A DNA stretch of 64,000 nucleotides from a virus. Positions 7,292 to 47,513 of this stretch are shown one piece after another. The first letter of the stretch is position 1, and every line of letters starts with the position of its first letter. The position numbers and the translations under genes are program-made. Under the pieces are notes generated by a model. The model had not been told where the DNA came from and did no database searches. It was given only the letters and a program-made list of their open reading frames with translations. The DNA is taken from the IMG/VR virus record IMGVR_UViG_3300031787_000078, positions 1,581 to 65,580 of that record. One strand, 5' to 3'.

Positions 7292-7460
7292 GAGAATTTT
7301 CACAAAAAAACATATTTTAAGACATTTAGATGATATAGAAAAATATCTTGATGTCGATGCTGCATTTTTAACTGATAAATTCTCAAGAGATGTTTATCGG
7401 TTATTTAATGAAGGAAAATCCAAAGAAGAAATAATAAAATACATAAACGAAAACAAATGA
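7278..7460 (+). CDS. small hypothetical protein (60 aa)
   Basis: ATG ORF ending in an ATGA overlap with the glutamine synthetase start. Confidence 0.3.
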   Translation: MGFNKRIFTKKHILRHLDDIEKYLDVDAAFLTDKFSRDVYRLFNEGKSKEEIIKYINENK

Positions 7461-8581
7461 AAATTAAATTAGAATATGTTTGGCTTGATGGATATAGACC
7501 GGAGCCAAACCTTAGAAGTAAAGTTAAAATTGTTGAAAGTGAAGTTCCTATGGAATTAAATAATATTCCGGTATGGAATTTTGATGGATCATCCACTTCT
7601 CAAGCGGAAACAGGAAATTCAGATCGTCTTTTAAAACCTGTTAGACAGTATACAACACATGGGTTCCCATTCGTAAATGATACTGTATATGTATTATGTG
7701 AAGTATTAAATCCTGATGGGACCCCACATGAATCAAATAAAAGATCTCAGATTGGTGATAACTTTGAAGATCTTTGGTTTGGGTTTGAACAAGAATACTT
7801 CATACGTGAAGAGATTAACGGAAACATTTTAGGTCATAAAAGAAACATCCTTAAAGGACAGGGAGAATATTATTGTGGTGTAGGACATAATGTTGTTGGT
7901 CGTGATTTTGTTGAATCACACTTAGATATGTGTCTAAATTATGGGATTGATATTACCGGTACTAATGCTGAGGTTGCTTTAGGACAATGGGAATATCAAG
8001 TTTTTTCAAAAGGAAAATTAAAAGGTGGTGACGATCTTTGGATGACTCGTTATTTCTTATTCAAAATGGCAGAAAAATATGGTTATCATATTGAATTACA
8101 CCCTAAACCATTAACACACGGTGAGTGGAATGGATCTGGACTTCACACTAATTTCTCAACCGATACTATGAGAAATGATGGAAATGAAAAATATTTTATG
8201 GCTTTATTTAATGCATTTGAATCAAGACATCAAGATCACATCAAAGCGTATGGGTCTAATAATAATTTACGTCTAACTGGTGAATACGAAACACAGGCAA
8301 TTGATAAATTCAGTTGGGGTGTGTCAGATCGTGGAGCATCAATTCGTGTACCACAAGATACGGCAAAAGAATGGAAAGGCTACATTGAAGACCGTAGACC
8401 GGGATCAAATGCGGATCCATATAAAATTATTCGTGAGATTGTTAAATCTCTTGATGTTACAAAACAGATTTATGAAACAAAAATTATGATGACTAAATTT
8501 GTTGATATGGATGGATTAAGTGGTAAATACAATACTATATCAAGAGACGAATTATTAAACGTATATAGAGAAGAAGAATAA
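7457..8581 (+). CDS. glnII: glutamine synthetase, type II (eukaryote-like GSII)
   Basis: Colinear match to GSII signatures: WNFDGSST, LWFGFEQEY, YYCGVGHNVVGRD, GTNAEVALGQWEYQV, NGSGLHTNFST, GASIRVP, YIEDRRPGSNADPY. Confidence 0.92.
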   Translation: MKIKLEYVWLDGYRPEPNLRSKVKIVESEVPMELNNIPVWNFDGSSTSQAETGNSDRLLKPVRQYTTHGFPFVNDTVYVLCEVLNPDGTPHESNKRSQIGDNFEDLWFGFEQEYFIREEINGNILGHKRNILKGQGEYYCGVGHNVVGRDFVESHLDMCLNYGIDITGTNAEVALGQWEYQVFSKGKLKGGDDLWMTRYFLFKMAEKYGYHIELHPKPLTHGEWNGSGLHTNFSTDTMRNDGNEKYFMALFNAFESRHQDHIKAYGSNNNLRLTGEYETQAIDKFSWGVSDRGASIRVPQDTAKEWKGYIEDRRPGSNADPYKIIREIVKSLDVTKQIYETKIMMTKFVDMDGLSGKYNTISRDELLNVYREEE

Positions 8582-14629: not shown

Positions 14630-14712
14630 CCTTGTTTAGTAAAACAAGGTGGTGGAGTCGGACAATTCATTGTCGACCTTTAAAGGGAGGGGTTAACCTT
14701 CCCTTTTTTTAT
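14630..14712. terminator. convergent intergenic region with several hairpins (bidirectional termination)
   Basis: Perfect hairpin CCTTGTTT-AGTA-AAACAAGG (14630-14649), imperfect GTCGGACAA/TTGTCGAC hairpin, and AAGGGA…TCCCTT followed by TTTTTTT. Sits between the convergent + gene (ends 14625) and the minus-strand sigma gene (ends 14693). Confidence 0.5.
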
Positions 14713-15253
14713 TTAACTTTTCCAAATAAGATTTAACGTTGGCTTTTGCTTTAAATAAATTTGATTTTGATGTACCATCGCTAATTCCTAATTCATCTGC
14801 AATTTCTTGGTGAGACATATCTTCAAAATAATACATATTAAAAATTCTTTTATATGATGGTGATAAAGTTTCCATAGCATCTTTAATATCGGACATAGAA
14901 AACATAGGTTCTTCATTTGGCATATCCTCAAGACCTAAATCTTCACGACCGAAATCAACATCTTTTCTTTTTGGAGATCTTTTTTCTTTTCTTAATTCAT
15001 CAATAATTGTATTTTTTATAATACGTTGAATCCAACCTTCAAGGCTACCTGAACCGTCATACATTCCCATTTTTTGGTGAACCTTTATAAAACCTAATTG
15101 ACAAAAATCATTTGCTTTTTCTTTGTCTCCGTTTGCATATCTTAAACAAATCTGTCTAAATATTTTTGGGTATAACCTTTTATATTCAAGATCAAAATTA
15201 AATCCTTCACTTATTAAGTGTTCATATTGTGACTCAGTTAAAATGATTTTCAT
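14693..15253 (-). CDS. sigma-70 family (ECF-like) RNA polymerase sigma factor
   Basis: Region 2 segment (…FIKVHQKMGMYDGSGSLEGWIQRIIKNTIIDELR) and classic region-4 HTH (FEDMSHQEIADELGISDGTSKSNLFKAKANV). Start trimmed to the first ATG (MKIILTESQ…) at 15253; the track start 15355 is upstream in frame. Confidence 0.85.
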   Translation of the reverse strand: MKIILTESQYEHLISEGFNFDLEYKRLYPKIFRQICLRYANGDKEKANDFCQLGFIKVHQKMGMYDGSGSLEGWIQRIIKNTIIDELRKEKRSPKRKDVDFGREDLGLEDMPNEEPMFSMSDIKDAMETLSPSYKRIFNMYYFEDMSHQEIADELGISDGTSKSNLFKAKANVKSYLEKLNKKREG

Positions 15254-15288
15254 AACAATAAATAGTTGTTTATTGAAAAAAAAATTCA

Positions 15289-15296
15289 TATCTTTG
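15289..15296 (+). promoter_or_regulatory. TATCTTTG -7-like element
   Basis: Exact octamer only 4 nt before the ATG at 15301, which implies a leaderless or near-leaderless transcript. Confidence 0.35.
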
Positions 15297-15300
15297 TGAT

Positions 15301-15702
15301 ATGGAAAAAATATTGTATATAGTTCGTGGAATTCCGGGATCTGGTAAATCCACATTTGCTAAATCTTTAGGTGGTACTCATTTTGAAACTGATATGTTTT
15401 TTATGAAAGATGGGGAATATAAATTTGATATATCTAAAATTAAAGAAGCCCATAAATGGTGTCAAGATAGTGTTTATACTGCAATGTTATTAAATCATAC
15501 TGCGTTATTAAATAATGTAATTGTTGTTTCAAACACATTCACTCAAGAATGGGAAATGAAACCATATTTTGAAATGGCGGAATATTTTGAATATAAAGTT
15601 TTTTCCATAGTTGTGGAAAATAGACACGGAGGTGTTAACAAACACAATGTACCCGAAGAAACATTAACCTCGATGAGAAATCGTTTTGAAATAAATTTGT
15701 AG
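15301..15702 (+). CDS. P-loop kinase, polynucleotide-kinase (Pnk)-like kinase domain
   Basis: Walker A GIPGSGKST at residues 10-18 and small size (133 aa), resembling the T4 Pnk N-terminal kinase (GCPGSGKST). Confidence 0.55.
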   Translation: MEKILYIVRGIPGSGKSTFAKSLGGTHFETDMFFMKDGEYKFDISKIKEAHKWCQDSVYTAMLLNHTALLNNVIVVSNTFTQEWEMKPYFEMAEYFEYKVFSIVVENRHGGVNKHNVPEETLTSMRNRFEINL

Positions 15703-15704
15703 TT

Positions 15705-16613
15705 ATGAGTAGATTAGATAGATTAAAAGAACAACATCCTGAATTAAACATTACCATTATAGATCTTATTGGTATGATAGATCCTACCGATACGTATAAA
15801 TATTCTGAGTTTTTAATTAAAAAATTAAAAACGTGGTATGATAATATTGACATACGATATGGTATTGGGGTTGATTTTTTTGGTGAAGAAAATGTTGAAA
15901 CTTTAAATGAGTTTGAAATACATTGTAAGGCAAAAAGAATTGAGAAAAACGATATTAGTCAACATACCGACTTTAGGACTTTAAAAAATGAGGTTAATAA
16001 GGCTAAAGAAATTGTCAGATTAAAAGAGTTGGAAAAACAAACCAAAAAATTACTTGAATATGGGGAATGGTTAGTTATGATACCATTAAGTTATGAGGCG
16101 GCAAAGTTATATGGTGCAAATACTAAATGGTGTATAACTGAAGAAAAATATTGGAATAACTATGTTGAGAATTATAAAATTATTTATGTGATCAATAGAA
16201 GTACGGATGTTAAATATGCGATCTCTAGAGATAAAACGGATAATAAAGATTTAAAGGCGTGGTTGTCTGATGATAGTGAGACAAGTCCATTATTATTAAA
16301 TATACCTCAGGAAATATGGTCAGTGGTAATACCTGAATTACAAAAAGAAGAATCAATATGGGATTTACTACCGGATAATAATAAGATTATCCCACATAAT
16401 TTGGGTTCGGATAACATTCTTGATAGAGTGAGAAATTTATTAAACAGCAATAGTACGGGTCCACTAAATTTGACCGGAGGTTATATGGGTTACATAAATA
16501 CTGATTCCCATAATGATGTATATAGAACTTACAGTTCTCCCGATTATGTTGATTTTGAAAAGTATCTAAGAGAATATATGTATACGTCAGATGAATCAAT
16601 TGATTTACCTTAA
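15705..16613 (+). CDS. hypothetical protein, KYGAxTKWC family paralog A
   Basis: Shares PLSYEAAKLYGANTKWCITE…YVINR and an N-terminal DPTDTYKYSEFLIKKL block with the ORFs at 22205 and 30420. Confidence 0.5.
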   Translation: MSRLDRLKEQHPELNITIIDLIGMIDPTDTYKYSEFLIKKLKTWYDNIDIRYGIGVDFFGEENVETLNEFEIHCKAKRIEKNDISQHTDFRTLKNEVNKAKEIVRLKELEKQTKKLLEYGEWLVMIPLSYEAAKLYGANTKWCITEEKYWNNYVENYKIIYVINRSTDVKYAISRDKTDNKDLKAWLSDDSETSPLLLNIPQEIWSVVIPELQKEESIWDLLPDNNKIIPHNLGSDNILDRVRNLLNSNSTGPLNLTGGYMGYINTDSHNDVYRTYSSPDYVDFEKYLREYMYTSDESIDLP

Positions 16614-16624
16614 ATAAAAAGAAT

Positions 16625-17278
16625 ATGAAATTTGATAAAATATTAACAACAGGTAGAGTGTGGGTTACATCGGATCCGCATTATAACCATAAAAATATTT
16701 GTAGAGGTGTAACAAATTGGAGAACCCAAGATGGTGAGATTCCTCTTAATAATACAAGAGATTTTCATACAATAGATCTAATGAATAATGTTTTAGTGGA
16801 TAACATAAATTCAAAAGTTGGACAAAACGACACATTAATTATGTTGGGTGATGTTGCATTCGGTGGTTTTGAAAGTATTAGGATTTTCTTGGATCGATTG
16901 GTGTGTAAGAATATTCATTTAGTGATGGGTAATCATGATCAACATATAAGAAATAATAGAGAAAACATAAGAGATATGTTTTTATCTGTAAGTGATTACC
17001 TCCAAGTCCACATAGATGGTGCTGATTTTGTTATGACACATTATCCGTTTGAAAGTTGGAATGGTCTTAATAAAGGTGTTATACATCTTCATGGTCACGT
17101 TCACTTACCTGCAAGTAGAAAATGGGGTAAGGGTAAAAGATTAGATGTTGGCGTTGATGGTAACAATCTATATCCATATAGTATAACTGAAATTGTACAT
17201 ATGATGGATAAAAGAAAAATTGTTCCTGAAATGGAAGGTGATCACCATTTAGATGATTTAGTTGGGGTTATTGGATAA
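16625..17278 (+). CDS. calcineurin-like metallophosphoesterase
   Basis: Motifs VTSDPHYNH, LGDVAFGG, GNHD, HGHVH. Confidence 0.8.
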   Translation: MKFDKILTTGRVWVTSDPHYNHKNICRGVTNWRTQDGEIPLNNTRDFHTIDLMNNVLVDNINSKVGQNDTLIMLGDVAFGGFESIRIFLDRLVCKNIHLVMGNHDQHIRNNRENIRDMFLSVSDYLQVHIDGADFVMTHYPFESWNGLNKGVIHLHGHVHLPASRKWGKGKRLDVGVDGNNLYPYSITEIVHMMDKRKIVPEMEGDHHLDDLVGVIG

Positions 17279-17305
17279 TTTAATAACCCCAATATATTTA
17301 TTAAT

Positions 17306-18547
17306 ATGAAAATTATTATAACAGAAAGTCAGTGTAAAATTATTAATGAAGCGTTAGGTGTTCCTGATAACATTCTTGATGCTGCCGAAAAATTATTTGA
17401 GATAGTATCTAAAGATATTCAATCAATTAATACCAAACAAGAAGAATATAATTTTGATGGTGATTTAGACATTGAGTTAGGTTATAATAAAAAAATAGTT
17501 ATTGATCATTATGAATTAACAGTTAACGTAAAAGAATTTGATGAATATGATGGTGAACCAGATATTTTATCGATGGGGATGGCTCAGACATTTATGTTTG
17601 ATAGAAAAATTATGATGAAGAAAATTAAACCATCAACGAATGCTTCTTTATCAATAACATATGCGGTATCATCATCTTGGGAACCTAATCAGTTGTACGA
17701 AACTTTAATGAGAGAAAAAAATGAGCATATAGCTTCATTGGCTCACGAAATAAAACATAAGTACGATAAGCAGGCGAAACAAATTGATTTAATTGGTCGG
17801 GATGTAAAATATACTGCAACACAAAAAATCTCAACGTTTGGGATACCTGTAATAGATCAAAAGTTTTTCAGGTATATGTATTATATTTCTATTGCGGAAA
17901 ATTTAGTGAGACCAACTGAAATTGCTTCTAAACTTAAAAGTGAAAATATTACAAAATCTCAGTTTAGAGAATTTTTAGAAAACAATAGAGTTTATAAAGA
18001 ATTAGTTGAAATAAAAAATTTCACATATGAAAAACTTATTGAAGGTTTATATGAAAGGATGGACAGAGTAGATGCATTACTTGATCATATTGGAGAAGAT
18101 ACGGATGAAATGACAGATCAAGAAAAAATTAAAAGAGTATTAGAGCTTGTGTTTGTCAATCTTGCAAATATAAAGGTAGAGACATTTGACAAAATGGTTA
18201 GTAATAAGGTAGATATGTTAAAAGACCTTTTCAAACAAATGATGGGTCACGTACCTTCATTTATGAAAGATGATGACGATGAAGAAAATGTTGACAAAGT
18301 GAGAAGAAAAATTATAAATAGTATTATTAAATATGAGAATGACCCTTTAAAATTTTTTCAGGATGAATGTGAAAAATATAATTACATTGCAACAAAAATG
18401 TTGAAAAAAATTGGTAAACTTTATGCTATGGCAAAAGATGATGATCCGGTTAATGAATCCATAATTAATTGGGAACTTCATCAGAAGTTAATGGAAAAAA
18501 AATACGGAAAAAGACCAATACTTACAAAATTTTCTTTTTTAAAGTAA
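17306..18547 (+). CDS. hypothetical protein
   Basis: 413-aa ORF; N-terminus MKIIITESQ resembles that of the ORF at 56256. Confidence 0.5.
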   Translation: MKIIITESQCKIINEALGVPDNILDAAEKLFEIVSKDIQSINTKQEEYNFDGDLDIELGYNKKIVIDHYELTVNVKEFDEYDGEPDILSMGMAQTFMFDRKIMMKKIKPSTNASLSITYAVSSSWEPNQLYETLMREKNEHIASLAHEIKHKYDKQAKQIDLIGRDVKYTATQKISTFGIPVIDQKFFRYMYYISIAENLVRPTEIASKLKSENITKSQFREFLENNRVYKELVEIKNFTYEKLIEGLYERMDRVDALLDHIGEDTDEMTDQEKIKRVLELVFVNLANIKVETFDKMVSNKVDMLKDLFKQMMGHVPSFMKDDDDEENVDKVRRKIINSIIKYENDPLKFFQDECEKYNYIATKMLKKIGKLYAMAKDDDPVNESIINWELHQKLMEKKYGKRPILTKFSFLK

Positions 18548-18567
18548 ATTAATCAAAATTTTTTTAT

Positions 18568-18575
18568 TATCTTTG
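18568..18575 (+). promoter_or_regulatory. TATCTTTG -7-like element
   Basis: Exact octamer 7 nt before the ATG at 18583. Confidence 0.35.
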
Positions 18576-18582
18576 TTCTTAT

Positions 18583-27956: not shown

Positions 27957-28239
27957 TGAACATCTAATGGATTTGGAACCGGTGGAGGAGTTAATTGATT
28001 ATACAAGGGAACTTGAAGAAATCGTATTACAAAGAGAGATTGAAGATTCATATGATAAAGAACATATATTAAGATCTATGTTATTAGACATATTAACAAG
28101 TTGTCGTGATATGGAAGAAACAAACCAACTAGCAGAAAGATATCCTGATATGTATGAAAAATGTGATTCTGAATCTTTAGTTAAAAATTTAAAGATTTAT
28201 ATTATGGATATGAATAGTAAAAATAATTTAAGGTTATGA
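27925..28239 (+). CDS. hypothetical protein
   Basis: 104-aa ORF in a chain of overlapping small ORFs. Confidence 0.35.
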   Translation: MKSISQIFRDNEHLMDLEPVEELIDYTRELEEIVLQREIEDSYDKEHILRSMLLDILTSCRDMEETNQLAERYPDMYEKCDSESLVKNLKIYIMDMNSKNNLRL

Positions 28240-28553
28240 ATAAGATTACTTTAATTGAAAATTGTTTTGGTCCTGATGTTGAAATTGACGATGAGTCATT
28301 ATTTATACATGAGTATGATAATAGAAATCCTGATATGATTAGTGATTTACAGGATCAACTAATTGATAAATTAAAATCACTAAAAAATAATTTAAGTATG
28401 AGTAATTGGACTGAGATTGCAATGATAGTTATTAATAGTGGAGATGAGTTTGAGTATGATGTTGAAAACTCAAAAGATTATGAACCCTGTGATCAATGTG
28501 GTAATTGGAATCATAACCATAAATTTATAAAAAAAAATAAAAACGATGAATAA
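28236..28553 (+). CDS. hypothetical protein with CxxC/HxH cluster
   Basis: CDQCGNWNHNH near the C-terminus. Confidence 0.35.
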   Translation: MNKITLIENCFGPDVEIDDESLFIHEYDNRNPDMISDLQDQLIDKLKSLKNNLSMSNWTEIAMIVINSGDEFEYDVENSKDYEPCDQCGNWNHNHKFIKKNKNDE

Positions 28554-28845
28554 GATTATTATAATGGAAAAGGAACCATATTTGGTTTCTGACGAAGAAA
28601 TTCAATTAGGAGATATTGCTATTGTAACCGTTGGTGGTCAGTATCCATCAAAGGTTGTATGTGAGAATGAAACAGTATTATCGCTAGTAAAAGATCCAAA
28701 GTTAACTTTAACAAAAAGTTATAAATTAGTTGGAGATCCAGATAAGGTAAAATTACCGGAATCAAGAATCAATAATATAATTGAAAATGGTGGTATGTGT
28801 GACGTAACAATCGAAGGTTCTGAAATTAAATTTATGACGGTATGA
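28546..28845 (+). CDS. hypothetical protein
   Basis: 99-aa ORF. Confidence 0.35.
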   Translation: MNKIIIMEKEPYLVSDEEIQLGDIAIVTVGGQYPSKVVCENETVLSLVKDPKLTLTKSYKLVGDPDKVKLPESRINNIIENGGMCDVTIEGSEIKFMTV

Positions 28846-28941
28846 TGTTAATTGAAGGTATTTTACACATAGTTGCAATTGGTTGGTTTGTAATAGTTAT
28901 GCCAATATATTTTGTTATAAGATTTTTTAAAAGTAAAAAAA

Positions 28942-29496
28942 ATGGTTACGGAGATTGATGATTTTTTAAGTCCAGAAGAATGTGATAATTTAATAAGTTT
29001 GGCGTCCGCTACTTTTGATGAGGTAGGAGTCCTTGGAGAAAGCGTAGAAGGTTATAGAGTTGCTTCAGGGGCTTGGTTAGAGGAGGAAGATGGTGAAGTT
29101 CCATTGAAATATATGGATCTTGTTTCAGAAATTACAAAATTACCAAAAGTTAATATGGAGAGTATCCATGTTGTTAAATATGGTATTGGTGAAGAATATA
29201 AGGATCATCACGACTTTTTTCACCCTGGTGAATCTTATTATGAAGATGAATTAAGTAGAGGTGGTCAAAGATTAAAAACTGCGTTAGTGTATTTGAATGA
29301 TGAATTTGAAGGTGGGGAAACTAATTTCCCAAATTTAAATATTATGGTAAAACCTAAAAAGGGAAAATTAGTTTTATGGGATAACATTAATGAGGATGGA
29401 TCTTTAGATTATGATAGCCTTCATGCGGGACTACCTGTAAAAAGTGGATACAAGTATATTGCGGTTATTTGGATAAGAGAAAATGAATTTTATTAA
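28942..29496 (+). CDS. 2OG-Fe(II) oxygenase, prolyl 4-hydroxylase-like
   Basis: HHD (HxD) facial-triad motif, TALVYLNDEFEGGETNFP, KKGKLVLW, distal His in SLHAGLPV, KYIAVIWIRE; matches the P4Hc pattern. Confidence 0.85.
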   Translation: MVTEIDDFLSPEECDNLISLASATFDEVGVLGESVEGYRVASGAWLEEEDGEVPLKYMDLVSEITKLPKVNMESIHVVKYGIGEEYKDHHDFFHPGESYYEDELSRGGQRLKTALVYLNDEFEGGETNFPNLNIMVKPKKGKLVLWDNINEDGSLDYDSLHAGLPVKSGYKYIAVIWIRENEFY

Positions 29497-29547
29497 AAAT
29501 TTGTTTTATTAAAAAAGTTTTATTAAATTTGTCCTATATATTAAGTT

Positions 29548-29784
29548 ATGGACCCAATTAAAGCAAATTTATTATCTCAAACTTTAGAGATTACGTTTAC
29601 TCAGGAGGCGGATTGTTGTTCAATCGAAGAACAATATTTAACCATTAAAACAGAGAATGGTGGTGGGGGTGACTTCTATGTCATTGAGACCAAAAGATGG
29701 TCATTTGATACTATCGAAGAAATTATTGATACATTAACTCAATTTAAAAATAAACACCTTAAAATAAAAGAAGAAAATTTATGA
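29548..29784 (+). CDS. hypothetical protein
   Basis: 78-aa ORF. Confidence 0.35.
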   Translation: MDPIKANLLSQTLEITFTQEADCCSIEEQYLTIKTENGGGGDFYVIETKRWSFDTIEEIIDTLTQFKNKHLKIKEENL

Positions 29785-30023
29785 AAAAATTAATTTTTAT
29801 TACTCTAATTGGATTTATGTTGTTTTCTTGTGTGGGAAAAGAATATAGATACGAAATTCATGGTAAAGTTTATGTCCCAACGTCAGGTTTAAATCCTATG
29901 CATGATGCCATATGGTATACCGATACAATTAGTTTTGATGGAGACACAATTTACTATTTTAACAGTGATGGATCTGAAGTGAGAATTCATCCTCCATATA
30001 TATTAAAAGATTATTCAAAATGA
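29781..30023 (+). CDS. putative lipoprotein
   Basis: Signal plus lipobox-like MLFSC. Confidence 0.4.
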   Translation: MKKLIFITLIGFMLFSCVGKEYRYEIHGKVYVPTSGLNPMHDAIWYTDTISFDGDTIYYFNSDGSEVRIHPPYILKDYSK

Positions 30024-30433
30024 AAATAGGAATAACCTGTTCTTGTTTTGATTTATTTCATGCGGGACACGTAAAAATGTTGGAGGAAGCAAAAACACAG
30101 TGTGATTACTTAATAATAGCATTACAAACAGACCCAACAATTGATAGACCTGAAAAGAATAAACCGGTACAATCAGTTGTTGAAAGATACATCCAACTGA
30201 AAGGATGTAAGTTTGTTGATGAGATCATCCCTTATGAAACAGAAAAAGATTTAGAGGATATTTTTAAGACATTAAAATTAGATGTAAGGATTATAGGTGA
30301 GGATTATAAAGGAAAAGATTTCACCGCAAAACAAATATGTTTAGATAGGAGTATTGTGTTATACTATAATGAAAGAAAACACAATTTCTCAAGTACAGAA
30401 CTTAAAAAAAGAATAAATAATGGCAAAAATTGA
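30020..30433 (+). CDS. cytidylyl/adenylyltransferase (TagD / RfaE domain-II-like nucleotidyltransferase)
   Basis: CFDLFHAGH (HxGH) motif and overall fit to ~130-aa glycerol-3-phosphate cytidylyltransferase / heptose-1-phosphate adenylyltransferase domains. Confidence 0.8.
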   Translation: MKIGITCSCFDLFHAGHVKMLEEAKTQCDYLIIALQTDPTIDRPEKNKPVQSVVERYIQLKGCKFVDEIIPYETEKDLEDIFKTLKLDVRIIGEDYKGKDFTAKQICLDRSIVLYYNERKHNFSSTELKKRINNGKN

Positions 30434-31316
30434 TGAATTAAAAAAAAAATACCCAAAAGTTATTAAATCCGTTGCTGATAGATTTTTTGAAGGTGATAAA
30501 ACACCAACCAAAAAATATCTTGAGTTTATGTTCAAGATGTGGGCAACAAGAACTAATAGACCAACTGAGGCATTTTCTTCCGCTCAGTATGTTAAAGTAA
30601 TTAATCAGTTTGATCAGTTGTTACCATATATTGAAAATAAAGATATATATAGTGGTCAATATAAATCTATAGTGCAATTATTTAGAGTAGTTGATAATGC
30701 TAAAGTATTAAAAGAAGAAAATGAATTTATTCGTGAAGATCATGTTGATGTTTTAATTGATAATGAAGATTATCTTTTAATTAGTCCTTTAACTTTAAAG
30801 GGATCCATAAAATATGGTGCGAATACTAAATGGTGTACTGCCAGTAAATCAAGTTCTTATCACTTTACAAGTTACACTAGAGATGGTTATTTGTTTTATT
30901 TGATCTCAAAAAAAGAAAGAGGTAAAAATCATGATAAGGTTGCGTTTTATTCTCGTGGTGGTAAAAATGAACACTTGACCACGTCTTACGCAATTTATAA
31001 TCAAATTGATACTGAGATTAACGAGCAAAAATTTATTTTGAATGGTTGGACTATGTTTGATCTATTTGAAATAATGACTAAAATAAGAGTTTATGCATAT
31101 GAAAAGTATGTAATTGAAAAGGCTAAAACTGATGTTGAAAAAACTGTTAATATTCTGAAGTCAGTTAATTTAGATGAATTTTTACAACAAGTTAATTTGT
31201 TAGAAAAATACGGAGAAAGTGGGGAAATAGAAGGAAGAGATGAATTGGAAAAAGTAATTCAAACTTTAAGTAAAAAAACAGAAGATTTATTTGGTAAATC
31301 TAAAATTAATGTGTAA
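30420..31316 (+). CDS. hypothetical protein, KYGAxTKWC family paralog C
   Basis: PLTLKGSIKYGANTKWCTASKSS…YLISK and an N-terminal DKTPTKKYLEFMFKMW block. Confidence 0.5.
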   Translation: MAKIDELKKKYPKVIKSVADRFFEGDKTPTKKYLEFMFKMWATRTNRPTEAFSSAQYVKVINQFDQLLPYIENKDIYSGQYKSIVQLFRVVDNAKVLKEENEFIREDHVDVLIDNEDYLLISPLTLKGSIKYGANTKWCTASKSSSYHFTSYTRDGYLFYLISKKERGKNHDKVAFYSRGGKNEHLTTSYAIYNQIDTEINEQKFILNGWTMFDLFEIMTKIRVYAYEKYVIEKAKTDVEKTVNILKSVNLDEFLQQVNLLEKYGESGEIEGRDELEKVIQTLSKKTEDLFGKSKINV

Positions 31317-31354: not shown

Positions 31355-31576
31355 ATGTTTAAAACAGAAAAGTTAGGACTATGGGGAGTCATAATACTAA
31401 CAACGATCTATCTCTATCTAATCAATTTATATTTTGAATATATTCTTAGTAGAGAAGTGGCAACCGAAATCCAAATTGTTGTAAGTTTATTAGCCTTGGC
31501 TTACACAATTTTTCAAGTAAAATTAGTAGTTAACAAGGCAATTAGTTTATTTAAAAAAGAAGAAAAAAATGATTAG
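31355..31576 (+). CDS. small membrane protein
   Basis: 73 aa with two hydrophobic helices. Confidence 0.4.
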   Translation: MFKTEKLGLWGVIILTTIYLYLINLYFEYILSREVATEIQIVVSLLALAYTIFQVKLVVNKAISLFKKEEKND

Positions 31577-32474
31577 TATTGTATTATTTATTGTGTTTAT
31601 TGTTATTGGAGCAATAATGTTTTTATCTGGTCGTGCAAATGACAATGACCGAAAAATGGTAACGGGAATTGCCGTTACTATAATTGGAATTTTAATCTCA
31701 TTTTTCCAACCTTACTCAATTGAAAAAATTGACGCTGGACACAAAGGATTAAAAATTAATTTAGTTGGAAACCAACGAGGAGTGTCAAGTTATCAATATA
31801 AGACAGGATGGGTTTTCTACAATAGTTGGACAGAACAAGTATTAGAATTTCCAACATATCAACAACATATTGAATATGAAGACCAAGGAGTTATCCTTAA
31901 AGGTGGGTTCTCGGCGACAATTAAACCAACATTCAACTATTCGTTACGTGAGGATGCTATTGGTGATATGTTTGTAAATTTACGTAGAGATATTAAAGAA
32001 GTTGAACAAGGATGGTTAAAAAATGCTATTATTGGTGCCGTTAATGACGTTGCGAACACATGGGAAGTAGATAGTATTTTTAATCACCGACAAGCATTTG
32101 AGGCTGCGATTGTATTGGAATGTAATAATCGTTTATCCAAGTGGTTTAATGTATCTCAATTACGAACTAATATTGTTCCACCTGATGCTTTACAAGAGTC
32201 GATTATTGCGAAGACCAAGGCAATCCAACAAGCGGAGGCATCAGAACAACAAGCGATCGCTGCGATTTCTGAGGGTAGACGTAAAGTTGCTGTTGCCAGA
32301 GCTGACTCAGCGGAAACTATCATCAACGCACAAGCTGCGGCACTTGCAATCAAGATCAAACAGAATCAATTATCTCCTCTGTATATTGAATACTTGAAAG
32401 CACAGGCTTGGGATGGAAAATTGCCTACCACAATGGCAGGAGGATCAGGGACCTTCCTTAATATAAAGAACTAA
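31569..32474 (+). CDS. SPFH/band-7 (stomatin/prohibitin/HflC-like) domain protein
   Basis: N-terminal TM helix then a band-7-like core and an Ala/Gln-rich C-terminal helix (AIQQAEASEQQAIAAISEGRRKVAVARADSAETIINAQAAALAIKIKQ), typical of SPFH proteins. Confidence 0.65.
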   Translation: MISIVLFIVFIVIGAIMFLSGRANDNDRKMVTGIAVTIIGILISFFQPYSIEKIDAGHKGLKINLVGNQRGVSSYQYKTGWVFYNSWTEQVLEFPTYQQHIEYEDQGVILKGGFSATIKPTFNYSLREDAIGDMFVNLRRDIKEVEQGWLKNAIIGAVNDVANTWEVDSIFNHRQAFEAAIVLECNNRLSKWFNVSQLRTNIVPPDALQESIIAKTKAIQQAEASEQQAIAAISEGRRKVAVARADSAETIINAQAAALAIKIKQNQLSPLYIEYLKAQAWDGKLPTTMAGGSGTFLNIKN

Positions 32475-37901: not shown

Positions 37902-38124
37902 ATTATATGATCAGTTGGAAGAATTCCAAAACGTCAGATACCGAATGGGTGCTGAAGGATTTCATTATTGTTTTAAAAGTTACTCAAGTTTTGAAGAAAT
38001 TGAGGATGATAAATTTCACGATTTAAGAAATGAATATCTTAGAGTAAGTAAAGAGTTAGAGAACTATGTTATAAATAAAATTTCTGAAATAGAAACTGAA
38101 ATTGCAATTAATGAATATGAATAG
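37882..38124 (+). CDS. hypothetical protein
   Basis: 80-aa ORF. Confidence 0.35.
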   Translation: MEEKLNKLYDQLEEFQNVRYRMGAEGFHYCFKSYSSFEEIEDDKFHDLRNEYLRVSKELENYVINKISEIETEIAINEYE

Positions 38125-39202
38125 TTTAGACAAACAATACCAAGATTTACTCCAATCAATTTTAGATTACGGAGTTGAAAAACAAGACCGTACAGGTACA
38201 GGAACCAAATCAATCTTTGGTTATACAATCCGTCATAATATGAAAGATGGGTTTCCTGTATTAACAACCAAGAAAATGGCGTGGAAGACGATGGTAACCG
38301 AATTGTTATGGTTCCTTCGTGGTGATACAAACATCAAGTTCCTTATTGATAATAATTGTCATATTTGGGATGGTGATGCGTACAAGAATTACTGTACCGC
38401 TTATAAAGATGGTCATGAATTTTATGAGGATGAACAAGTAAAGCGTTCTTTTACTCAAGAAGAATTCATCGACAAAATCAAAACAGATGATGAGTTTGCT
38501 AAGAAATGGGGTGACTTAGGTCCTGTATATGGTAAGCAATGGAGAAGTTGGGAAAATTTTTTCTATGATAACCCAGACCCATATGGTGATGGTTTTAGTC
38601 ACTATAAAGTAGACCAAATTCAAAATTTAATCAACGACCTTAAAACAAATCCTGACTCAAGACGACTAATGGTTAATGCTTGGAATGTAGGTGAATTAGA
38701 CCGAATGGTTCTTCCACCTTGTCATTATGGGTTCCAAGTTTATACAAGAGAATTGAGTTTGGAAGAAAGAAATGAAATTAGAGATATGCAATATTTTAGA
38801 AATAACTTACATAAATCCTTAAAAGGAAGTGATACTAAAATTGATTGGGAAAATATCCCAACTAGAGCAATCTCTTTAATGTGGAATCAACGTTCGGTAG
38901 ACACATTCTTAGGTTTACCGTTCAATATAGCATCTTACGGACTTCTACTTACAATCTTAGCAAAAGAAGTTAACATGGTTCCTGACCAACTGATTGGTAA
39001 TTTAGGTGATACCCACCTTTATCTTAATCATATTGAACAGGCAAAAGAACAGATTACAAGAGAACCATTTGAGTTACCAACACTTAATCAATTCCCAACT
39101 TACGAAGGGTCAAGACCATCAATAGAATCTTATGTGGTTAGTGATTTTACACTTAAAGATTATAAATCACACGAATCAATTAAAGCCCCTTTATCAAATT
39201 AA
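38117..39202 (+). CDS. thyA: thymidylate synthase (ThyA) with internal insertions
   Basis: DRTGTGTKSIFG, LLWFLRGDTN, PPCHYGFQVY (catalytic Cys), NQRSVD, DTHLYLNH. Track start 38102 is TTG; ATG (MNSLDKQY…) at 38117. Confidence 0.93.
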   Translation: MNSLDKQYQDLLQSILDYGVEKQDRTGTGTKSIFGYTIRHNMKDGFPVLTTKKMAWKTMVTELLWFLRGDTNIKFLIDNNCHIWDGDAYKNYCTAYKDGHEFYEDEQVKRSFTQEEFIDKIKTDDEFAKKWGDLGPVYGKQWRSWENFFYDNPDPYGDGFSHYKVDQIQNLINDLKTNPDSRRLMVNAWNVGELDRMVLPPCHYGFQVYTRELSLEERNEIRDMQYFRNNLHKSLKGSDTKIDWENIPTRAISLMWNQRSVDTFLGLPFNIASYGLLLTILAKEVNMVPDQLIGNLGDTHLYLNHIEQAKEQITREPFELPTLNQFPTYEGSRPSIESYVVSDFTLKDYKSHESIKAPLSN

Positions 39203-40804: not shown

Positions 40805-42712
40805 ATGTCTAAATTACTAAGAGTAATATTTACTTTATTTTTATTGACTCCGTTGTTTGTGTTTTCACAAGTACCTCAGGCACCTTCTAATGGTATCTGG
40901 GGTATAATTGATACACAATATCAAGTCGGTACAACTGCTCAGGGATCGACCCAAGCAAAAATCACTTTACAAAACACAACATTAACTAAGTACGCAGGTA
41001 CTCAGTTTAGAGTGTTTTATGACAACACAGCGTTCACAAACGCAACCGTATCATTGATTGGATCAACTACAAACCTCGATCTTCAATATACAACAAATAC
41101 CGCAAACGGATATATCACTATGACCTTAGTTTATACAGGTCCAAGTGCTACTTATACGTTGGCTAATGGTGAGAGATTTTTAATTACATTCACTCATGCG
41201 GCTCCTGCGGTGTTTAATAACTTGGCATCAATTTCACCACTTACTTGGTCAGGTGCTCAGGTGTTCCCAACATACGCAGCTAAACAAGATGGGATGGACA
41301 CAACATTAAGTGTACATAATTATGGAGGTAACTTCACATTTCAAAACTTCCAATATGCTGGAACATTTACAAACGTAACAGGGTCACCGGCTAAGTATTT
41401 AAATTTGGCACTTCAAAGAAGACCACAGACAGGAGGTTCGTGGGCACAACACTCCACTTATTCAACAGATATAAATGGTAACTTTTCAATATCGGTTCCA
41501 TTAGATACTACGTATTGGGATGTTCGTTTGGCAATCCAAGGAGATACAATGGGTGTTGGTAATATTATTTCATCAACAGATGCCCAACAAGTTAATCAAT
41601 GGGTATTAGGTAATGGTACAATGACAGGATTTGACTACTACACTGCAGATGTAAATAATTCGGGTAATATTACAATTTCAGATGTATGGGGTGTATTCGG
41701 TAGAGTATCTGGTAGATTCACACAATGGCCAAATAACGTTAAAGATGTAAAATTCTTTACCGCATCTGAATACTCAACAATCAACGGATCCAACACAAAC
41801 TACACTCAAACTATTCCTGGTGTAACAAACTTTACATTTGAAATTATTGCGGGTCAACCATCTTCAGTAACATATTATGTTATGGTTCCTGGTGATGCTA
41901 ATGGTACAGGATATCATATGGCACGTGTTACTCCAATTGAAGTATTAGTAGGACCAATACCTGGTTTAGAATCACAAATTTATAATGTAATAGATACTAA
42001 AGTTGAATATGATTTCCCAACTCAAACAATTGAAGTTAATGTACCACATATTTCAGTTGATGCTGGTAATTTAGTTAACCTTCCCGTGAAAGTATTTACA
42101 AATGGTATAGAATTATCTTCGTTACAGTTTGGTTTAAAATACAATACAGACCTATTGGAATTCAAAGGAGTTATTGCAAGTGAAAATGCGATGAAGTGGA
42201 TGTCTTATGTTAACCCAAATGGTAATCAAATTGATTGGGGTGGATTTGATGTAACAAATAATCAACAAACGCTTAAGGATGGTGATGAAGTTGTAACATT
42301 ACAATTCATAGCAAAACAACCACAAAACTTATGGGAAGAAAGTCCTTTATATACTTCATTAAAATTTGCGGGAACCACAGAATCTAATGACTTAACAATT
42401 ACCCCAACTAACGGAATCTTACAAGTATTAAAAAGTAATATTGGTGAAGTAATTGGAAATAGTATAGAAGTGTTTCCTAATCCATTTGTTGAAAATGTAA
42501 CAATAACATTTGAAGTAAAAGAAACGACAAACGCAAATCTTTCGGTTTATGATGTTGTAGGTAGAAAAGTTGTTACTATCCTTGAAGGTCAATTACCTGA
42601 TGGAACATATAATTACAATGAAAACTTAGGACAATTAGAACCAGGACTTTACATAGTAACCTTAAATATGGACAATGAAAGTCCAAAGTTTGAGAAAATT
42701 GTAAAACAATAA
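40805..42712 (+). CDS. secreted protein with T9SS (Por) C-terminal sorting domain and EF-hand/dockerin-like Ca loop
   Basis: Signal peptide MSKLLRVIFTLFLLTPLFVFSQ. C-terminal VFPNPFVENVTITFEV…LSVYDVVGRKVV…GLYIVTLNM matches the Por_Secre_tail pattern. Internal DVNNSGNITISD loop. Confidence 0.8.
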   Translation: MSKLLRVIFTLFLLTPLFVFSQVPQAPSNGIWGIIDTQYQVGTTAQGSTQAKITLQNTTLTKYAGTQFRVFYDNTAFTNATVSLIGSTTNLDLQYTTNTANGYITMTLVYTGPSATYTLANGERFLITFTHAAPAVFNNLASISPLTWSGAQVFPTYAAKQDGMDTTLSVHNYGGNFTFQNFQYAGTFTNVTGSPAKYLNLALQRRPQTGGSWAQHSTYSTDINGNFSISVPLDTTYWDVRLAIQGDTMGVGNIISSTDAQQVNQWVLGNGTMTGFDYYTADVNNSGNITISDVWGVFGRVSGRFTQWPNNVKDVKFFTASEYSTINGSNTNYTQTIPGVTNFTFEIIAGQPSSVTYYVMVPGDANGTGYHMARVTPIEVLVGPIPGLESQIYNVIDTKVEYDFPTQTIEVNVPHISVDAGNLVNLPVKVFTNGIELSSLQFGLKYNTDLLEFKGVIASENAMKWMSYVNPNGNQIDWGGFDVTNNQQTLKDGDEVVTLQFIAKQPQNLWEESPLYTSLKFAGTTESNDLTITPTNGILQVLKSNIGEVIGNSIEVFPNPFVENVTITFEVKETTNANLSVYDVVGRKVVTILEGQLPDGTYNYNENLGQLEPGLYIVTLNMDNESPKFEKIVKQ

Positions 42713-44224: not shown

Positions 44225-45852
44225 AATTAAATGTATTCATACTATTGTTCTTTTGCGTGTTTAGGTTCTTAAACCTAAATGCGCAAACTTACAATTATAG
44301 TTATTCCGATCCATGTACAGGCAATTTAAAAACAATAATAGTACCTATTAACGGAAGCGTAACAGTTTCATATTATGGATCAATCGCATCGTTTACTCAA
44401 AACGATTTCACAAACGGAACATTTGATGCTTGGACTAGTAACATATTTTCACAATATGGAACAAATAGTCCTTGTTCGGAAATAGTGGGGTTGGGTACGG
44501 CAGTTAACGTAACCCAAAATACTGCATTAAATGTTATTGGAATTCTTAACTCACTCTCAACAATATCTGATTTGGCAGCAGGATCTACTAATATATTAGG
44601 TGGATCTGTTACGTCTATTAATAATGCTGGAGGAAATAATAATTCTAAAAATAACAAAGGAGGGAATAATTCCCAAAATGGAAGTGGAGGTAATACAACA
44701 AATACTAATAACACCACAACCAATAATAATCAAAATCAAACAAATGGGACAAGTAACACTAATGAAGGAAGTACAACCAATTCTGGAACAAATGAAACAA
44801 GTTCAAACGGAGGAAATGGAGCCCCTAATTCAAATGTTGGAAATGAAAATTCAACACAAGCAGGAGGAACTACAACTCAAGGTGGATCAAATGAAAATGG
44901 AAATACATCGTCTAGCACGACTGTAAATGGGGAAACTCCCAACAACCAAACTCAAACAACAGGAGGGGAAACATCTGAAACACCAATAAACAATGAAACA
45001 ACAACTGAAAATGGAAATAATATCGGCAACACTGGCAGTGGTAATAACGGGAACACTGGTAATAATGGGAATGGTGGGTCTGGTTCAGGAAATAATCAGA
45101 CGGAAGAAAATAATGCAACACCTGAAACAACAGAAGAAAAAGGACAGACAAATATAACAGGAGGTGCCACAACCACAGTTAGATCAACACCAACAAGTAA
45201 AGAAGGTGGAAAACCCACTGTAGTGGGAAGTGCGGATTTTATTGGTTTTAATTTTAAAAATTCTGAAGTTAAAACAGGATTGAAGTTAACTGGTGGGTAT
45301 ACCGCAATGAGATGGGACGGTAAAAGAAGTTCAGGGTGTTTAGTTGATTATACTTCAGCACTTAGAGGACCAAACATTACAGGTTTTTATGCGTTCATTA
45401 GACCTAAATCTATTGTATTAGGGTCAGGAACATTAACGGTTGGATTTGAAGGTAACAAATCATTATATGGTACGATTGCTTTAGGACAAATGTTTACATT
45501 TAAAAAACCTAAATCCCTTAAACTTCTTTACATGGCGACTGTATCTTATGGTCAGGTCTATAGAGAATCGTTTTTAGGTACTGCCGCTATTGTGGGGGGG
45601 ACATATGATTTTAGTATTGGTAAACGATTTGATGTAAAATTAATGAACTTATTTGTTTACGCTCCTTATGTTAGTTATTATAATGATGTGGTATTGAAGT
45701 CACCTTATGTGATGTTACCAAGTATTGGTACAAATATAAAATTAACGAAAAAGTTTAAATTTAACATAAATGCAGGTGGTGCTTGGGATTTAAAAACAAG
45801 TGCTTTAAATTATACAGTAACGTGTGGAACAAGATTATTAATTGGACAATAG
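44221..45852 (+). CDS. secreted protein with N/T/G-rich low-complexity region and C-terminal beta-rich (possibly outer-membrane barrel) domain
   Basis: TTG start gives signal peptide MKLNVFILLFFCVFRFLNLNAQ; aa ~130-320 are N/T/G/S low complexity; the C-terminal ~250 aa show alternating hydrophobic beta-strand-like patterning. Confidence 0.45.
   Translation: MKLNVFILLFFCVFRFLNLNAQTYNYSYSDPCTGNLKTIIVPINGSVTVSYYGSIASFTQNDFTNGTFDAWTSNIFSQYGTNSPCSEIVGLGTAVNVTQNTALNVIGILNSLSTISDLAAGSTNILGGSVTSINNAGGNNNSKNNKGGNNSQNGSGGNTTNTNNTTTNNNQNQTNGTSNTNEGSTTNSGTNETSSNGGNGAPNSNVGNENSTQAGGTTTQGGSNENGNTSSSTTVNGETPNNQTQTTGGETSETPINNETTTENGNNIGNTGSGNNGNTGNNGNGGSGSGNNQTEENNATPETTEEKGQTNITGGATTTVRSTPTSKEGGKPTVVGSADFIGFNFKNSEVKTGLKLTGGYTAMRWDGKRSSGCLVDYTSALRGPNITGFYAFIRPKSIVLGSGTLTVGFEGNKSLYGTIALGQMFTFKKPKSLKLLYMATVSYGQVYRESFLGTAAIVGGTYDFSIGKRFDVKLMNLFVYAPYVSYYNDVVLKSPYVMLPSIGTNIKLTKKFKFNINAGGAWDLKTSALNYTVTCGTRLLIGQ
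44611..45181 (+). repeat. low-complexity (Asn/Thr/Gly/Ser-rich) coding region
   Basis: GGNNNSKNNKGGNNSQNGSGGNTTNTNNTTTNNNQNQTNGTSNTNEGSTTNSGTNETSSNGG…. Confidence 0.5.
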
Positions 45853-45860
45853 TATTATTG

Positions 45861-47513
45861 ATGTTATTTTTTGTGTCCTTCTTTGGATTGGGCCAAACAT
45901 TTACCTATTCTGGTTACATTTATAATGCTGATGGGACAGGTGCGGTAAATGTACCTGTTAAGTTGTATAAAAGAACTACACCCGTGATGAATGGGTTTAC
46001 GTCACAAACTAATTATAACGGACATTCATATTATCGATCAACAGGGGTTGCGACTTGGACGACAGCAAAAAGTGCGTGTGAGGCAATGAATGGTCATTTA
46101 GCCACAATATCGAATGCCTCAGAAAATACATTTCTTTTTAATACGTGGCCTTCAGGTTGGATTGGGTATTATCAAGACCGTGTAGCAGGATATACCTATT
46201 CAGAACCAACGGGTGGATATAGATGGACAGAAACTCAAGTTACAAGTGGTTTAGATGCTGACTATGATGTATCATCTTATACATCAGGACCAACTTTAGT
46301 TGATATCAAATCATCAATTAATGCCACACTATATAATTCTCCGACCTATTCAAGTACGGGAGGTAAATACTTAACATTCAATGGTTCTAATCAATATGCG
46401 ATAACTAATAACTTAGCTTCAAAATTCACATCAACCGCAATATCAGTAGTTGCTTGGATTTATCCAACAGGAAATGGGGTGATTGCATCTGAATTAAATA
46501 TCCCAAGCACAACATCAGGTTGGCACGAATCAATTATAGAAATTACAGGGTCAAATACCTTAAGAGTTGGGTTTTGGAACGGTACGGGTATTACGCAATT
46601 AAACACTCCTATTACACTTAATACATGGAATATGGTTTGTATCACTTATGATGGAACCACAATGAGAGGTTATTTAAATAATGTGAGTTTTGGAAGTGTA
46701 AACTTTTCTCGACAAGCGGCATTTATACATGGAGGAAATGGTCAACAACATTTCGCATTTGGATTAAATGATGCAACCAATATGGGTTCAGGTGCATTTG
46801 GGTCGTTTAGATTAGGTGACATCCAATTTTTTGACCGAGCAATTACCGTAGATGAAATTGATAGAACATTTAATTTATATGCTTATAGATATAGAACAAA
46901 TCAATATACTAACTGGAATCCTGGTGAACCAAATGATTCGGGTGGTGAGGATTATACACAATTTGTGGGTGGTGGTAAATGGAATGACTTACCCGTAAAT
47001 TATAGTTTCCAATACGTAATTGAGTTTGATTATATTGTTGATTATACACCATGGGTTTTATTTCAAACGGTATACACTAACTCATCAGGATACTATAGTT
47101 TTTCACAACCAACGAATCCTGCAGTAGAATGGTACTTACAATACGATGCACCAACACCAGTTACGACTTTACAAATAACAGACATGGTTGAAGTGTCTAA
47201 ATTGGTTTTAGGTATTACACCAATTAAAAGTATTCATTATCACAGATATGATGTTAACTATGATGGTAAAATAAATGTTGCTGATGAAAACTACATAAAC
47301 TTAAGAAGATATAATTTTTTTAATAGTTGGGTAACGATGTCACCTGCTAGATTATTTACACCGGCACAATACACAACATTAACAACAAATACAACAGATT
47401 TAAGAGTAACTATTCCTGGTGTATCATCTATAACAATAAACTCACCTGTAAGTGGAGGTTCGCAAAACTACTACTTAATAGCTCCGGGTTATAAAACAAC
47501 TGTAAACTATTAA
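45861..47513 (+). CDS. secreted C-type lectin-like protein with nested LamG (concanavalin-like) insertion and EF-hand/dockerin-like loop
   Basis: CTLD N-half WTTAKSACEAMNGHLATISNASENTFLFNTW…WIGY and C-half NWNPGEPND…EDY…KWND with EPN/WND Ca-sugar motifs and only one Cys; about 250 aa between the halves looks LamG-like (VVAWIYP…WHE…VCITYDGTTMRGYLNNV); DVNYDGKINVAD loop. Start uncertain: track TTG 45783, GTG 45822 or ATG 45861. Confidence 0.55.
   Translation: MLFFVSFFGLGQTFTYSGYIYNADGTGAVNVPVKLYKRTTPVMNGFTSQTNYNGHSYYRSTGVATWTTAKSACEAMNGHLATISNASENTFLFNTWPSGWIGYYQDRVAGYTYSEPTGGYRWTETQVTSGLDADYDVSSYTSGPTLVDIKSSINATLYNSPTYSSTGGKYLTFNGSNQYAITNNLASKFTSTAISVVAWIYPTGNGVIASELNIPSTTSGWHESIIEITGSNTLRVGFWNGTGITQLNTPITLNTWNMVCITYDGTTMRGYLNNVSFGSVNFSRQAAFIHGGNGQQHFAFGLNDATNMGSGAFGSFRLGDIQFFDRAITVDEIDRTFNLYAYRYRTNQYTNWNPGEPNDSGGEDYTQFVGGGKWNDLPVNYSFQYVIEFDYIVDYTPWVLFQTVYTNSSGYYSFSQPTNPAVEWYLQYDAPTPVTTLQITDMVEVSKLVLGITPIKSIHYHRYDVNYDGKINVADENYINLRRYNFFNSWVTMSPARLFTPAQYTTLTTNTTDLRVTIPGVSSITINSPVSGGSQNYYLIAPGYKTTVNY

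Follow-up and report, generated by a model that had tools for sequence, protein, structure and literature searches.

Three open reading frames (ORFs) in a 64,000-nucleotide stretch of viral DNA (IMG/VR record IMGVR_UViG_3300031787_000078, positions 1,581 to 65,580; hereafter the window) encode proteins, named here copies A, B and C, that have two sequence blocks in common. They raise the questions of whether these proteins are truly related, how long the copies have been kept and what such proteins may do for the virus.

Three paralogs with a common head and different tails

Pairwise BLASTP comparisons with compositional adjustment gave E-values of 2e-24 for A and B (26% identity over 238 amino acids, aa), 2e-11 for A and C and 3e-17 for B and C (about 26% identity in both); copies A, B and C are true paralogs of one family, as a preliminary description made from the letters alone had proposed. 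That description had also named a merely compositional likeness as the point to be checked, and the window, with 30% G+C, does bias amino-acid composition; however, chance similarity between unrelated AT-rich ORFs is refuted, with a probability that is practically nil, because the E-values are adjusted for composition and the invariant columns recur in thousands of homologs. A search of all 494 six-frame ORFs of the window with a hidden Markov model (HMM) of the three copies and with a regular expression for the motif found no fourth copy.

The module shared by A, B and C comprises ~200-260 aa and consists of an N-terminal helical lobe, marked by a DPTxTxKY block, and a five-stranded alpha/beta core, marked by PL[ST]...YGx[GN]TKWC...Y[LV]I[NS][KR]. 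Both blocks had been pointed out in the preliminary description and both are present in the three copies; of the KYGA(N/G)TKWC string that it gave as invariant, YGA(N/G)TKWC is strictly common to all, while the leading KYGA is not, since copy A reads K-L-YGA. The C-terminal tails do not align to each other, in agreement with the divergence noted at the outset: that of A (102 aa) is rich in N, S, D and L, that of B (78 aa) is acidic and poorly conserved, and that of C (88 aa) is helical, rich in K and E, and conserved among C orthologs. Copies A, B and C have no intergenic region of their own because each abuts or overlaps the gene upstream; the start of A abuts the stop of an AAA_33 kinase gene, and the start of C overlaps the end of a cytidylyltransferase gene by 14 nt.

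Age of the copies

In related phages, A, B and C are each matched by a separate ortholog in the corresponding position. Copy A has one with 53% identity in the relative L002, lying between the same AAA_33 and metallophosphoesterase genes; the ortholog of B (47% identity) is downstream of the same RNA ligase gene, and that of C (44% identity) is found on a 308-kb contig (L095), upstream of the same small membrane ORF and Band_7 gene. For the orthologs of C, length coverage stays at about 96% even where identity has fallen to about 40%. Neighbouring genes show 49-88% identity in the relatives; the family genes are thus at the fast end without being outliers, yet they are retained. Judged from these orthologs, the duplication is ancient, predating the divergence of the related phages, and each copy is stably maintained. 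This pattern argues against a recent diversification, and the suggestion that the three copies had diversified under selection in the manner of anti-defence proteins received no direct support; the analysis turned up no evidence of an anti-defence role.

Family size, distribution and database matches

The search of metagenomic viral databases that had been recommended was productive, with relatives encoded by more than 522 IMG/VR viral contigs of up to 316 kb. When 1.84 billion cluster representatives (clusters at 50% identity) were searched with a profile, 7,486 matched at E<=1e-3, 3,534 at E<=1e-10 and 516 at E<=1e-30. A scan of prokaryotes, using one genome from each of 185,579 species, gave four loci, all of them on short contigs of metagenome-assembled genome bins; the family is essentially confined to viruses. 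In culture it is carried by jumbo phages, namely Salicola phage SCTP-2, in which tblastn detected 5-7 family places, Caulobacter phage CcrBL9 and the PA5oct group of Pseudomonas phages. Among the members in BFVD are proteins from several uncultured Caudovirales, three of these proteins being from 'Myoviridae sp. ctWb16', as well as fused members from metagenomic Marseillevirus bins; fusions in BFVD are annotated as ankyrin or glutamyl-tRNA synthetase. The carriers are large and jumbo phages together with a few giant-virus bins, and the multi-copy state recurs in other large phages.

The database proteins matched by copy B (217) and by copy C (471) are without exception labelled 'hypothetical', and a Pfam domain was found in none of them. 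The statement that the motif could not be mapped to a known family was confirmed, as A, B and C had no match in Pfam, NCBIfam, PADLOC or PDB sequences; the PADLOC anti-phage defence models gave nothing at E<=0.1, a search of the PDB with the family sequence profiles A1, A2 and A4 found nothing, and a literature search for the GTKWC motif returned no relevant papers (venom peptides only). Only two PHROGs matched, both of 'unknown function': phrog_17056 (E of 1.2e-14 for B, 7.4e-8 for C and 6.4e-6 for A) and phrog_28193 (2.2e-9, 1.5e-4 and 3.6e-5 for the three copies). These are automatic clusters to which no description, motif, structure or function is attached, with members in cultured phages including SCTP-2, CcrBL9 and PA5oct-like phages; copies A and C are distant members of them. 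Domain fusions were considered as a source of functional hints and dropped, since Pfam annotation of the ten longest members and of 124 members gave only WG repeats and one weak Fic-like_C match. An ENA metagenome protein of 1,844 aa (P0124) is composed of five complete tandem modules with both blocks (DPTS..YVKWI and KLYGxGTKWC) intact in each and with WG (KWG-type) repeats between them.

Conserved residues and predicted structure

Conservation was measured across 160 diverse sequences, and residue numbers are those of copy C. P123, Y132, G133, W138 and C139 are 100% conserved, while K32, F64, D75, S129, T136, T140, F149, G156, L158, Y160, K173 and D197 are conserved in at least 95%; the invariant set is kept in A, B and C, and so are K32, F64, D75, T136, T140, K173 and D197. 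Copy B represents the canonical type, being the closest copy for 148 of 157 diverse representatives, and its orthologs are strongly conserved at the N-terminus from residue 1. Copy A belongs to a divergent subfamily, as it departs at seven near-invariant sites with the invariant residues kept; copy C departs at two.

AlphaFold models were obtained for B (predicted local distance difference test score, pLDDT, 77.5) and for C (pLDDT 87.8, predicted template modelling score 0.67). Both place a helical N-lobe before a beta-hairpin, three helices and a three-stranded meander; the conserved K and D of the N-lobe sit in inter-helix loops, the Gly-rich segment forms a loop and the Cys opens a short helix. 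The B model has a disordered linker (residues 270-301) followed by a terminal helix, and the C model ends in long C-terminal helices that are conserved among C orthologs.

A possible distant relationship to PcfJ

Two weak hints to the PcfJ domain (PF14284), independent of each other, came from 2 of 124 members (best E 0.024) and from a BFVD Foldseek match (E 0.21). We used hhalign to compare an alignment of the C-terminal domains of pCF10 PcfJ and twelve diverse plasmid and phage proteins (13 loci) with three separately built family alignments, which gave P values of 0.0027 (A3), 0.009 (A4) and 0.091 (A2) over 90-99 columns. The register was identical in the three, pairing the D, P, G, C, Y and G..I strand of the family with HD, P, EG, HC, Y and G..I.F.R of PcfJ. 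Scores were 29.2 for A3, 25.5 for A4 and a marginal 19.0 for A2. Reversed decoys reached 12.9-14.9 and the best of 30 column shuffles 18.8; A3 and A4 exceeded all 36 decoys. When a PcfJ HMM was used, 16 of 402 family members scored above the best reversed decoy, each aligned in that register again; of the 494 ORFs of the window, copy A matched this HMM best.

In this register the conserved landmarks of the two families follow one another in the same order and at nearly equal distances: a Pro-containing turn and then an Asp, some 40 residues of intervening helix, a hydrophobic strand with Pro at its end, a Gly 10 residues past this Pro and a Cys 6 past the Gly (the latter two spacings being identical), then a Tyr, a Gly and a hydrophobic strand with a basic end. 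PcfJ is also carried by mobile elements and viruses (pCF10, Herelleviridae, Polaribacter phage Freya and others), like the present family. On the other hand, EG and (H/N)C of PcfJ correspond to YG and WC here, and the invariant T-x-E and Q..G..N of PcfJ (T219, E221, Q229, G232) are absent, the family having K-[FY]-[GA] and D..ID in their place, with K173 and D197..D201 at those positions. The placement differs too, since the domain is C-terminal in PcfJ and N-terminal, with the DPTxTxKY lobe, in this family. Statistical support is borderline; all in all, we consider a true distant homology of the family head with the PcfJ domain slightly more probable than not. It offers a candidate bridge to a widespread and equally uncharacterised domain.

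A gene for a PcfK-like protein ('Cas9 inhibitor AcrIIA9 family') lies immediately upstream of PcfJ in 7 of the 13 sampled loci (L100-L112), in Bacillota and Bacteroidota. Two such PcfK-like partners, Listeria phage B054 gp61 and Streptococcus phage Javan567_0037, are unannotated. A PcfK HMM found nothing beside A, B and C or in the flanks of 80 viral loci.

A homolog associated with virions

Phage PA5oct gp205 (EST35_0205) carries both motifs (SADPTSNQKYLQWI and FFGKGTRWCTAAD...PLYTW), and Foldseek matched the B model to it with an E-value of 1.3e-5 and a probability of 1.00. It is annotated as 'structural protein, ESI-MS/MS' (electrospray ionization tandem mass spectrometry), that is, it was found in virions, where it is one of 93 virion-linked products (PMC7318152). 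This protein differs from the window copies in that it has 482 aa with an unrelated 250-aa C-terminal extension, is single-copy and belongs to a phage of a Pseudomonadota host. PA5oct-like phages have their single family gene between the large terminase gene and the gene of another virion protein; in MIJ3 (L099) the ortholog directly follows the large terminase gene, which is annotated there and 'hypothetical' in PA5oct (L010). The proteomics of MIJ3 covered four major bands only and is uninformative in this respect. Because gp205 is packaged in virions, some family members may, by analogy, act at the very start of infection.

Weighing the possible functions

The explanation that we tentatively favour, at a level somewhat short of probable, is that the copies are ancient, separately kept paralogs in which a conserved head serves as a thiol-centred enzyme or ligand-binding unit and variable tails provide targeting. 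The head (about 200-260 aa, common to all members, the tail being subfamily-specific) joins a helical N-lobe bearing K32 and D75 to a five-stranded antiparallel alpha/beta lobe, which carries the loop-helix Y132-G133-x-(G/N)-T136-K137-W138-C139-T140 plus K173 and D197; on this view, the conserved polar residues would form one pocket at the lobe interface. The invariant Cys after the Gly-rich turn could be a reactive thiol, acting as nucleophile or ligand contact with the help of Lys and Asp, so that the head would be an enzyme or a unit binding a small ligand or nucleic-acid ends. Variable tails, or ankyrin, WG-repeat and other extensions elsewhere in the family, would send each paralog to a different partner, and the head would be a probable very distant relative of the PcfJ domain. 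An early-infection role of such head/tail proteins is possible, by analogy with gp205.

Several observations weigh against this explanation. The family has no conserved His and hence no classical Cys-His catalytic pair, and the tandem heads of P0124 fit a binding module better than an enzyme. As to PcfJ, the Pfam PF14284 model gave no match to A, B or C at E<=1, leaving the gathering threshold unreached; the HH-suite probability of the relation is low (11% for A3, 4.5% for A4 and 0.6% for A2), and PcfJ itself is uncharacterised, with no described function in the literature searched; a search of the PDB with the PcfJ profile likewise found no solved structure. Virion detection concerns one distant homolog, from an unrelated jumbo phage and among 93 virion-linked proteins; the window copies sit among auxiliary-metabolism genes and not among structural ones. 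Finally, neither 80 IMG/VR loci nor more distant contexts revealed a conserved functional neighbour beyond close relatives.

Another reading takes the copies for products of an arms race, that is, for quickly diversifying proteins of anti-defence or host interaction with variable tails that follow the defence targets of the host. In its favour, the family is virus-restricted, is multi-copy in several large phages, has variable tails and evolves somewhat faster than the neighbouring enzymes; the genes for PcfK/'AcrIIA9 family' proteins adjoining its possible distant kin PcfJ are an indirect hint. Nevertheless, the positional ortholog of each paralog and the full-length conservation of copy C point to an ancient duplication under purifying selection, which weakens this idea; PcfK-like partners were absent beside the family genes in the window and the 80 viral loci, and no PADLOC model matched, so that we regard it as rather improbable. 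Slightly better placed, although still unlikely, is a virion-internal or structural role in which the head serves packaging or assembly and not catalysis, for which the paralogous inner-body and head proteins of phiKZ-like phages provide a comparison. The detection of the PA5oct homolog in virions, the place of its gene among consecutive virion-protein genes, beside the terminase ortholog, and the conservation of B orthologs from residue 1, which could be a targeting signal, are in its favour; the proteomic observation is however a single one, made in a distant phage, the copies of the window are found among DnaK, RNA-repair-like, nucleotide and sugar metabolism genes, and invariant Cys, Lys, Asp and Thr residues would be unusual for a purely structural protein.

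A divergent acyl-CoA-dependent acyltransferase of the GNAT fold is very improbable, as there was no sequence signal, the structural Z was similar to that for unrelated alpha+beta folds, and the family has fewer strands than the mixed sheet of 6-7 expected for a strong fold match. On inspection, GNAT motif A (Q/R-x-x-G-x-G/A between beta4 and alpha3) does not agree with LYGANT, KYGAGT and KYGANT either: position -3 lacks a conserved Q/R, A and C have Asn in place of the second Gly, and strand and loop are separated by a helix. Other identities were considered by inspection, namely a peroxiredoxin-like PxxxTxxC site, PD-(D/E)xK nucleases, Pol-beta nucleotidyltransferases, papain-like Cys-His enzymes and the Asp-Lys-Cys triad of isochorismatase-type amidases; all were discarded on account of motif spacing, the missing His or fold topology.

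Genomic setting

Nearly all genes of the window are on the + strand. Besides the three copies it encodes DnaK, an extracytoplasmic function (ECF)-type sigma factor, an AAA_33 kinase, a metallophosphoesterase, an RNA ligase, a HAD_SAK_2 protein and a 2-oxoglutarate oxygenase, as well as a cytidylyltransferase, an SPFH protein, a thymidylate synthase and a glutamine-synthetase-like protein; ARAGORN detected no tRNA genes in the 64 kb. Metagenomic contigs as long as 308 kb carry orthologs of the window genes in unchanged order, which makes a large or jumbo phage the probable source of the window. One protein of 635 aa has a cohesin domain and a C-terminal sorting domain (Por_Secre_tail) of the type IX secretion system (T9SS), and shows 32% identity to proteins of Flavobacterium phage vB_FspM_immuto. 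Its sequence implies a phage-encoded T9SS cargo, and because of these domains and the resemblance to Flavobacterium phage proteins the host is very likely a member of the Bacteroidota.

The copies are interspersed with an RNA-repair-like set of four genes (Table 1), an arrangement kept in the relatives L002-L004. Membership of the family in an RNA-repair operon was considered and rejected, given that the order is kept in close relatives only and is absent in L005-L008, in L095 and in the 80 IMG/VR loci. The ECF-type sigma-70 gene is on the minority strand, its 5' end and the start of the AAA_33 gene having 55 nt in common; a linkage to sigma factors was also dropped, for copy A and SCTP-2 gene 37 are near a divergent sigma gene but the close relatives L002-L004 are without one. 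Just upstream of the family gene, 28 of the 80 IMG/VR loci have a divergent ORF with an HExxH-like motif (RHELEHIKQY) and no Pfam match (for example L054:1-879 and L087:529-1506, both on the - strand); this ORF is confined to one lineage and unrelated to the 413-aa ORF of the window, and it was rejected as a functional partner.

Copy C is directly followed by a small ORF with two transmembrane segments and then by an SPFH/Band_7 gene, a trio that is kept on the 308-kb contig. The DnaK/HSP70 protein is full-length and has 82% identity to its ortholog on the same contig. The thymidylate synthase has 366 aa against a profile of 266 positions and probably contains an insertion. The remaining genes mentioned, including one for a protein with C-type lectin and LamG domains, are listed in Table 1.

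Table 1. Positions in the window of the three family genes, their shared blocks and neighbouring genes.
Feature	Positions	Strand	Remarks
Copy A	15705-16613	+	ORF of 302 aa
Copy B	22205-23239	+	ORF of 344 aa
Copy C	30420-31316	+	ORF of 298 aa
N-terminal block of A, DPTDTYKYSEFLIK	15780..15821	+	holds family-wide conserved K32
N-terminal block of B, DPSKTNKLTPFMVK	22277..22318	+	holds K31
N-terminal block of C, DKTPTKKYLEFMFK	30495..30536	+	holds K32
Core block of A, PLSYEAAKLYGANTKWCIT...YVINR	16083..16211	+	YGANTKWC at 16110-16133 (PLS...YGANTKWCI)
Core block of B, PLSFEASLKYGAGTKWCTS...YLINK	22667..22792	+	YGAGTKWC at 22694-22717 (PLS...YGAGTKWCT)
Core block of C, PLTLKGSIKYGANTKWCTA...YLISKK	30786..30914	+	YGANTKWC at 30813-30836 (PLT...YGANTKWCT)
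AAA_33 kinase	15301-15702	+	RNA-repair-like set
Metallophosphoesterase	16625-17278	+	RNA-repair-like set
RNA ligase with PHA02142 OB domain	20756-21886	+	RNA-repair-like set
HAD_SAK_2 'Swiss army knife' phosphatase	26763-27347	+	RNA-repair-like set
Glutamine-synthetase-like protein	7457-8581	+	
ECF-type sigma-70 factor	14693-15355	-	
DnaK/HSP70	23858-25714	+	
Small ORF with two transmembrane segments	31355-31576	+	
SPFH/Band_7 protein	31569-32474	+	
Thymidylate synthase	38102-39202	+	
Cohesin/T9SS sorting domain protein	40805-42712	+	
C-type lectin and LamG protein	45783-47513	+	

Significance

The locus is no special one; it is an ordinary instance of a phage family that has been catalogued but not described, and this family ranks among the larger parts of the viral 'dark matter' on which every curated resource is silent. 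A bolder version of the interpretation, which we consider a long shot, would see in it a new virus-specific enzyme superfamily with a fold absent from the PDB, in which the Cys with Lys and Asp would perform thiol chemistry on a universal substrate, while paralogs, some of them packaged, would use their tails to direct this chemistry to different targets, in host or phage, as infection begins, all being related to PcfJ. If true, these proteins would be a functional parallel to the PcfJ proteins encoded in early regions of plasmids and phages, and anciently related to them. What the present analysis supplies is the definition of the family through two blocks, the list of its conserved residues, two confident models and the mutational targets that these provide. 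If one member were solved, annotation could follow for thousands of phage genes, and perhaps for the PcfJ proteins of conjugative elements.

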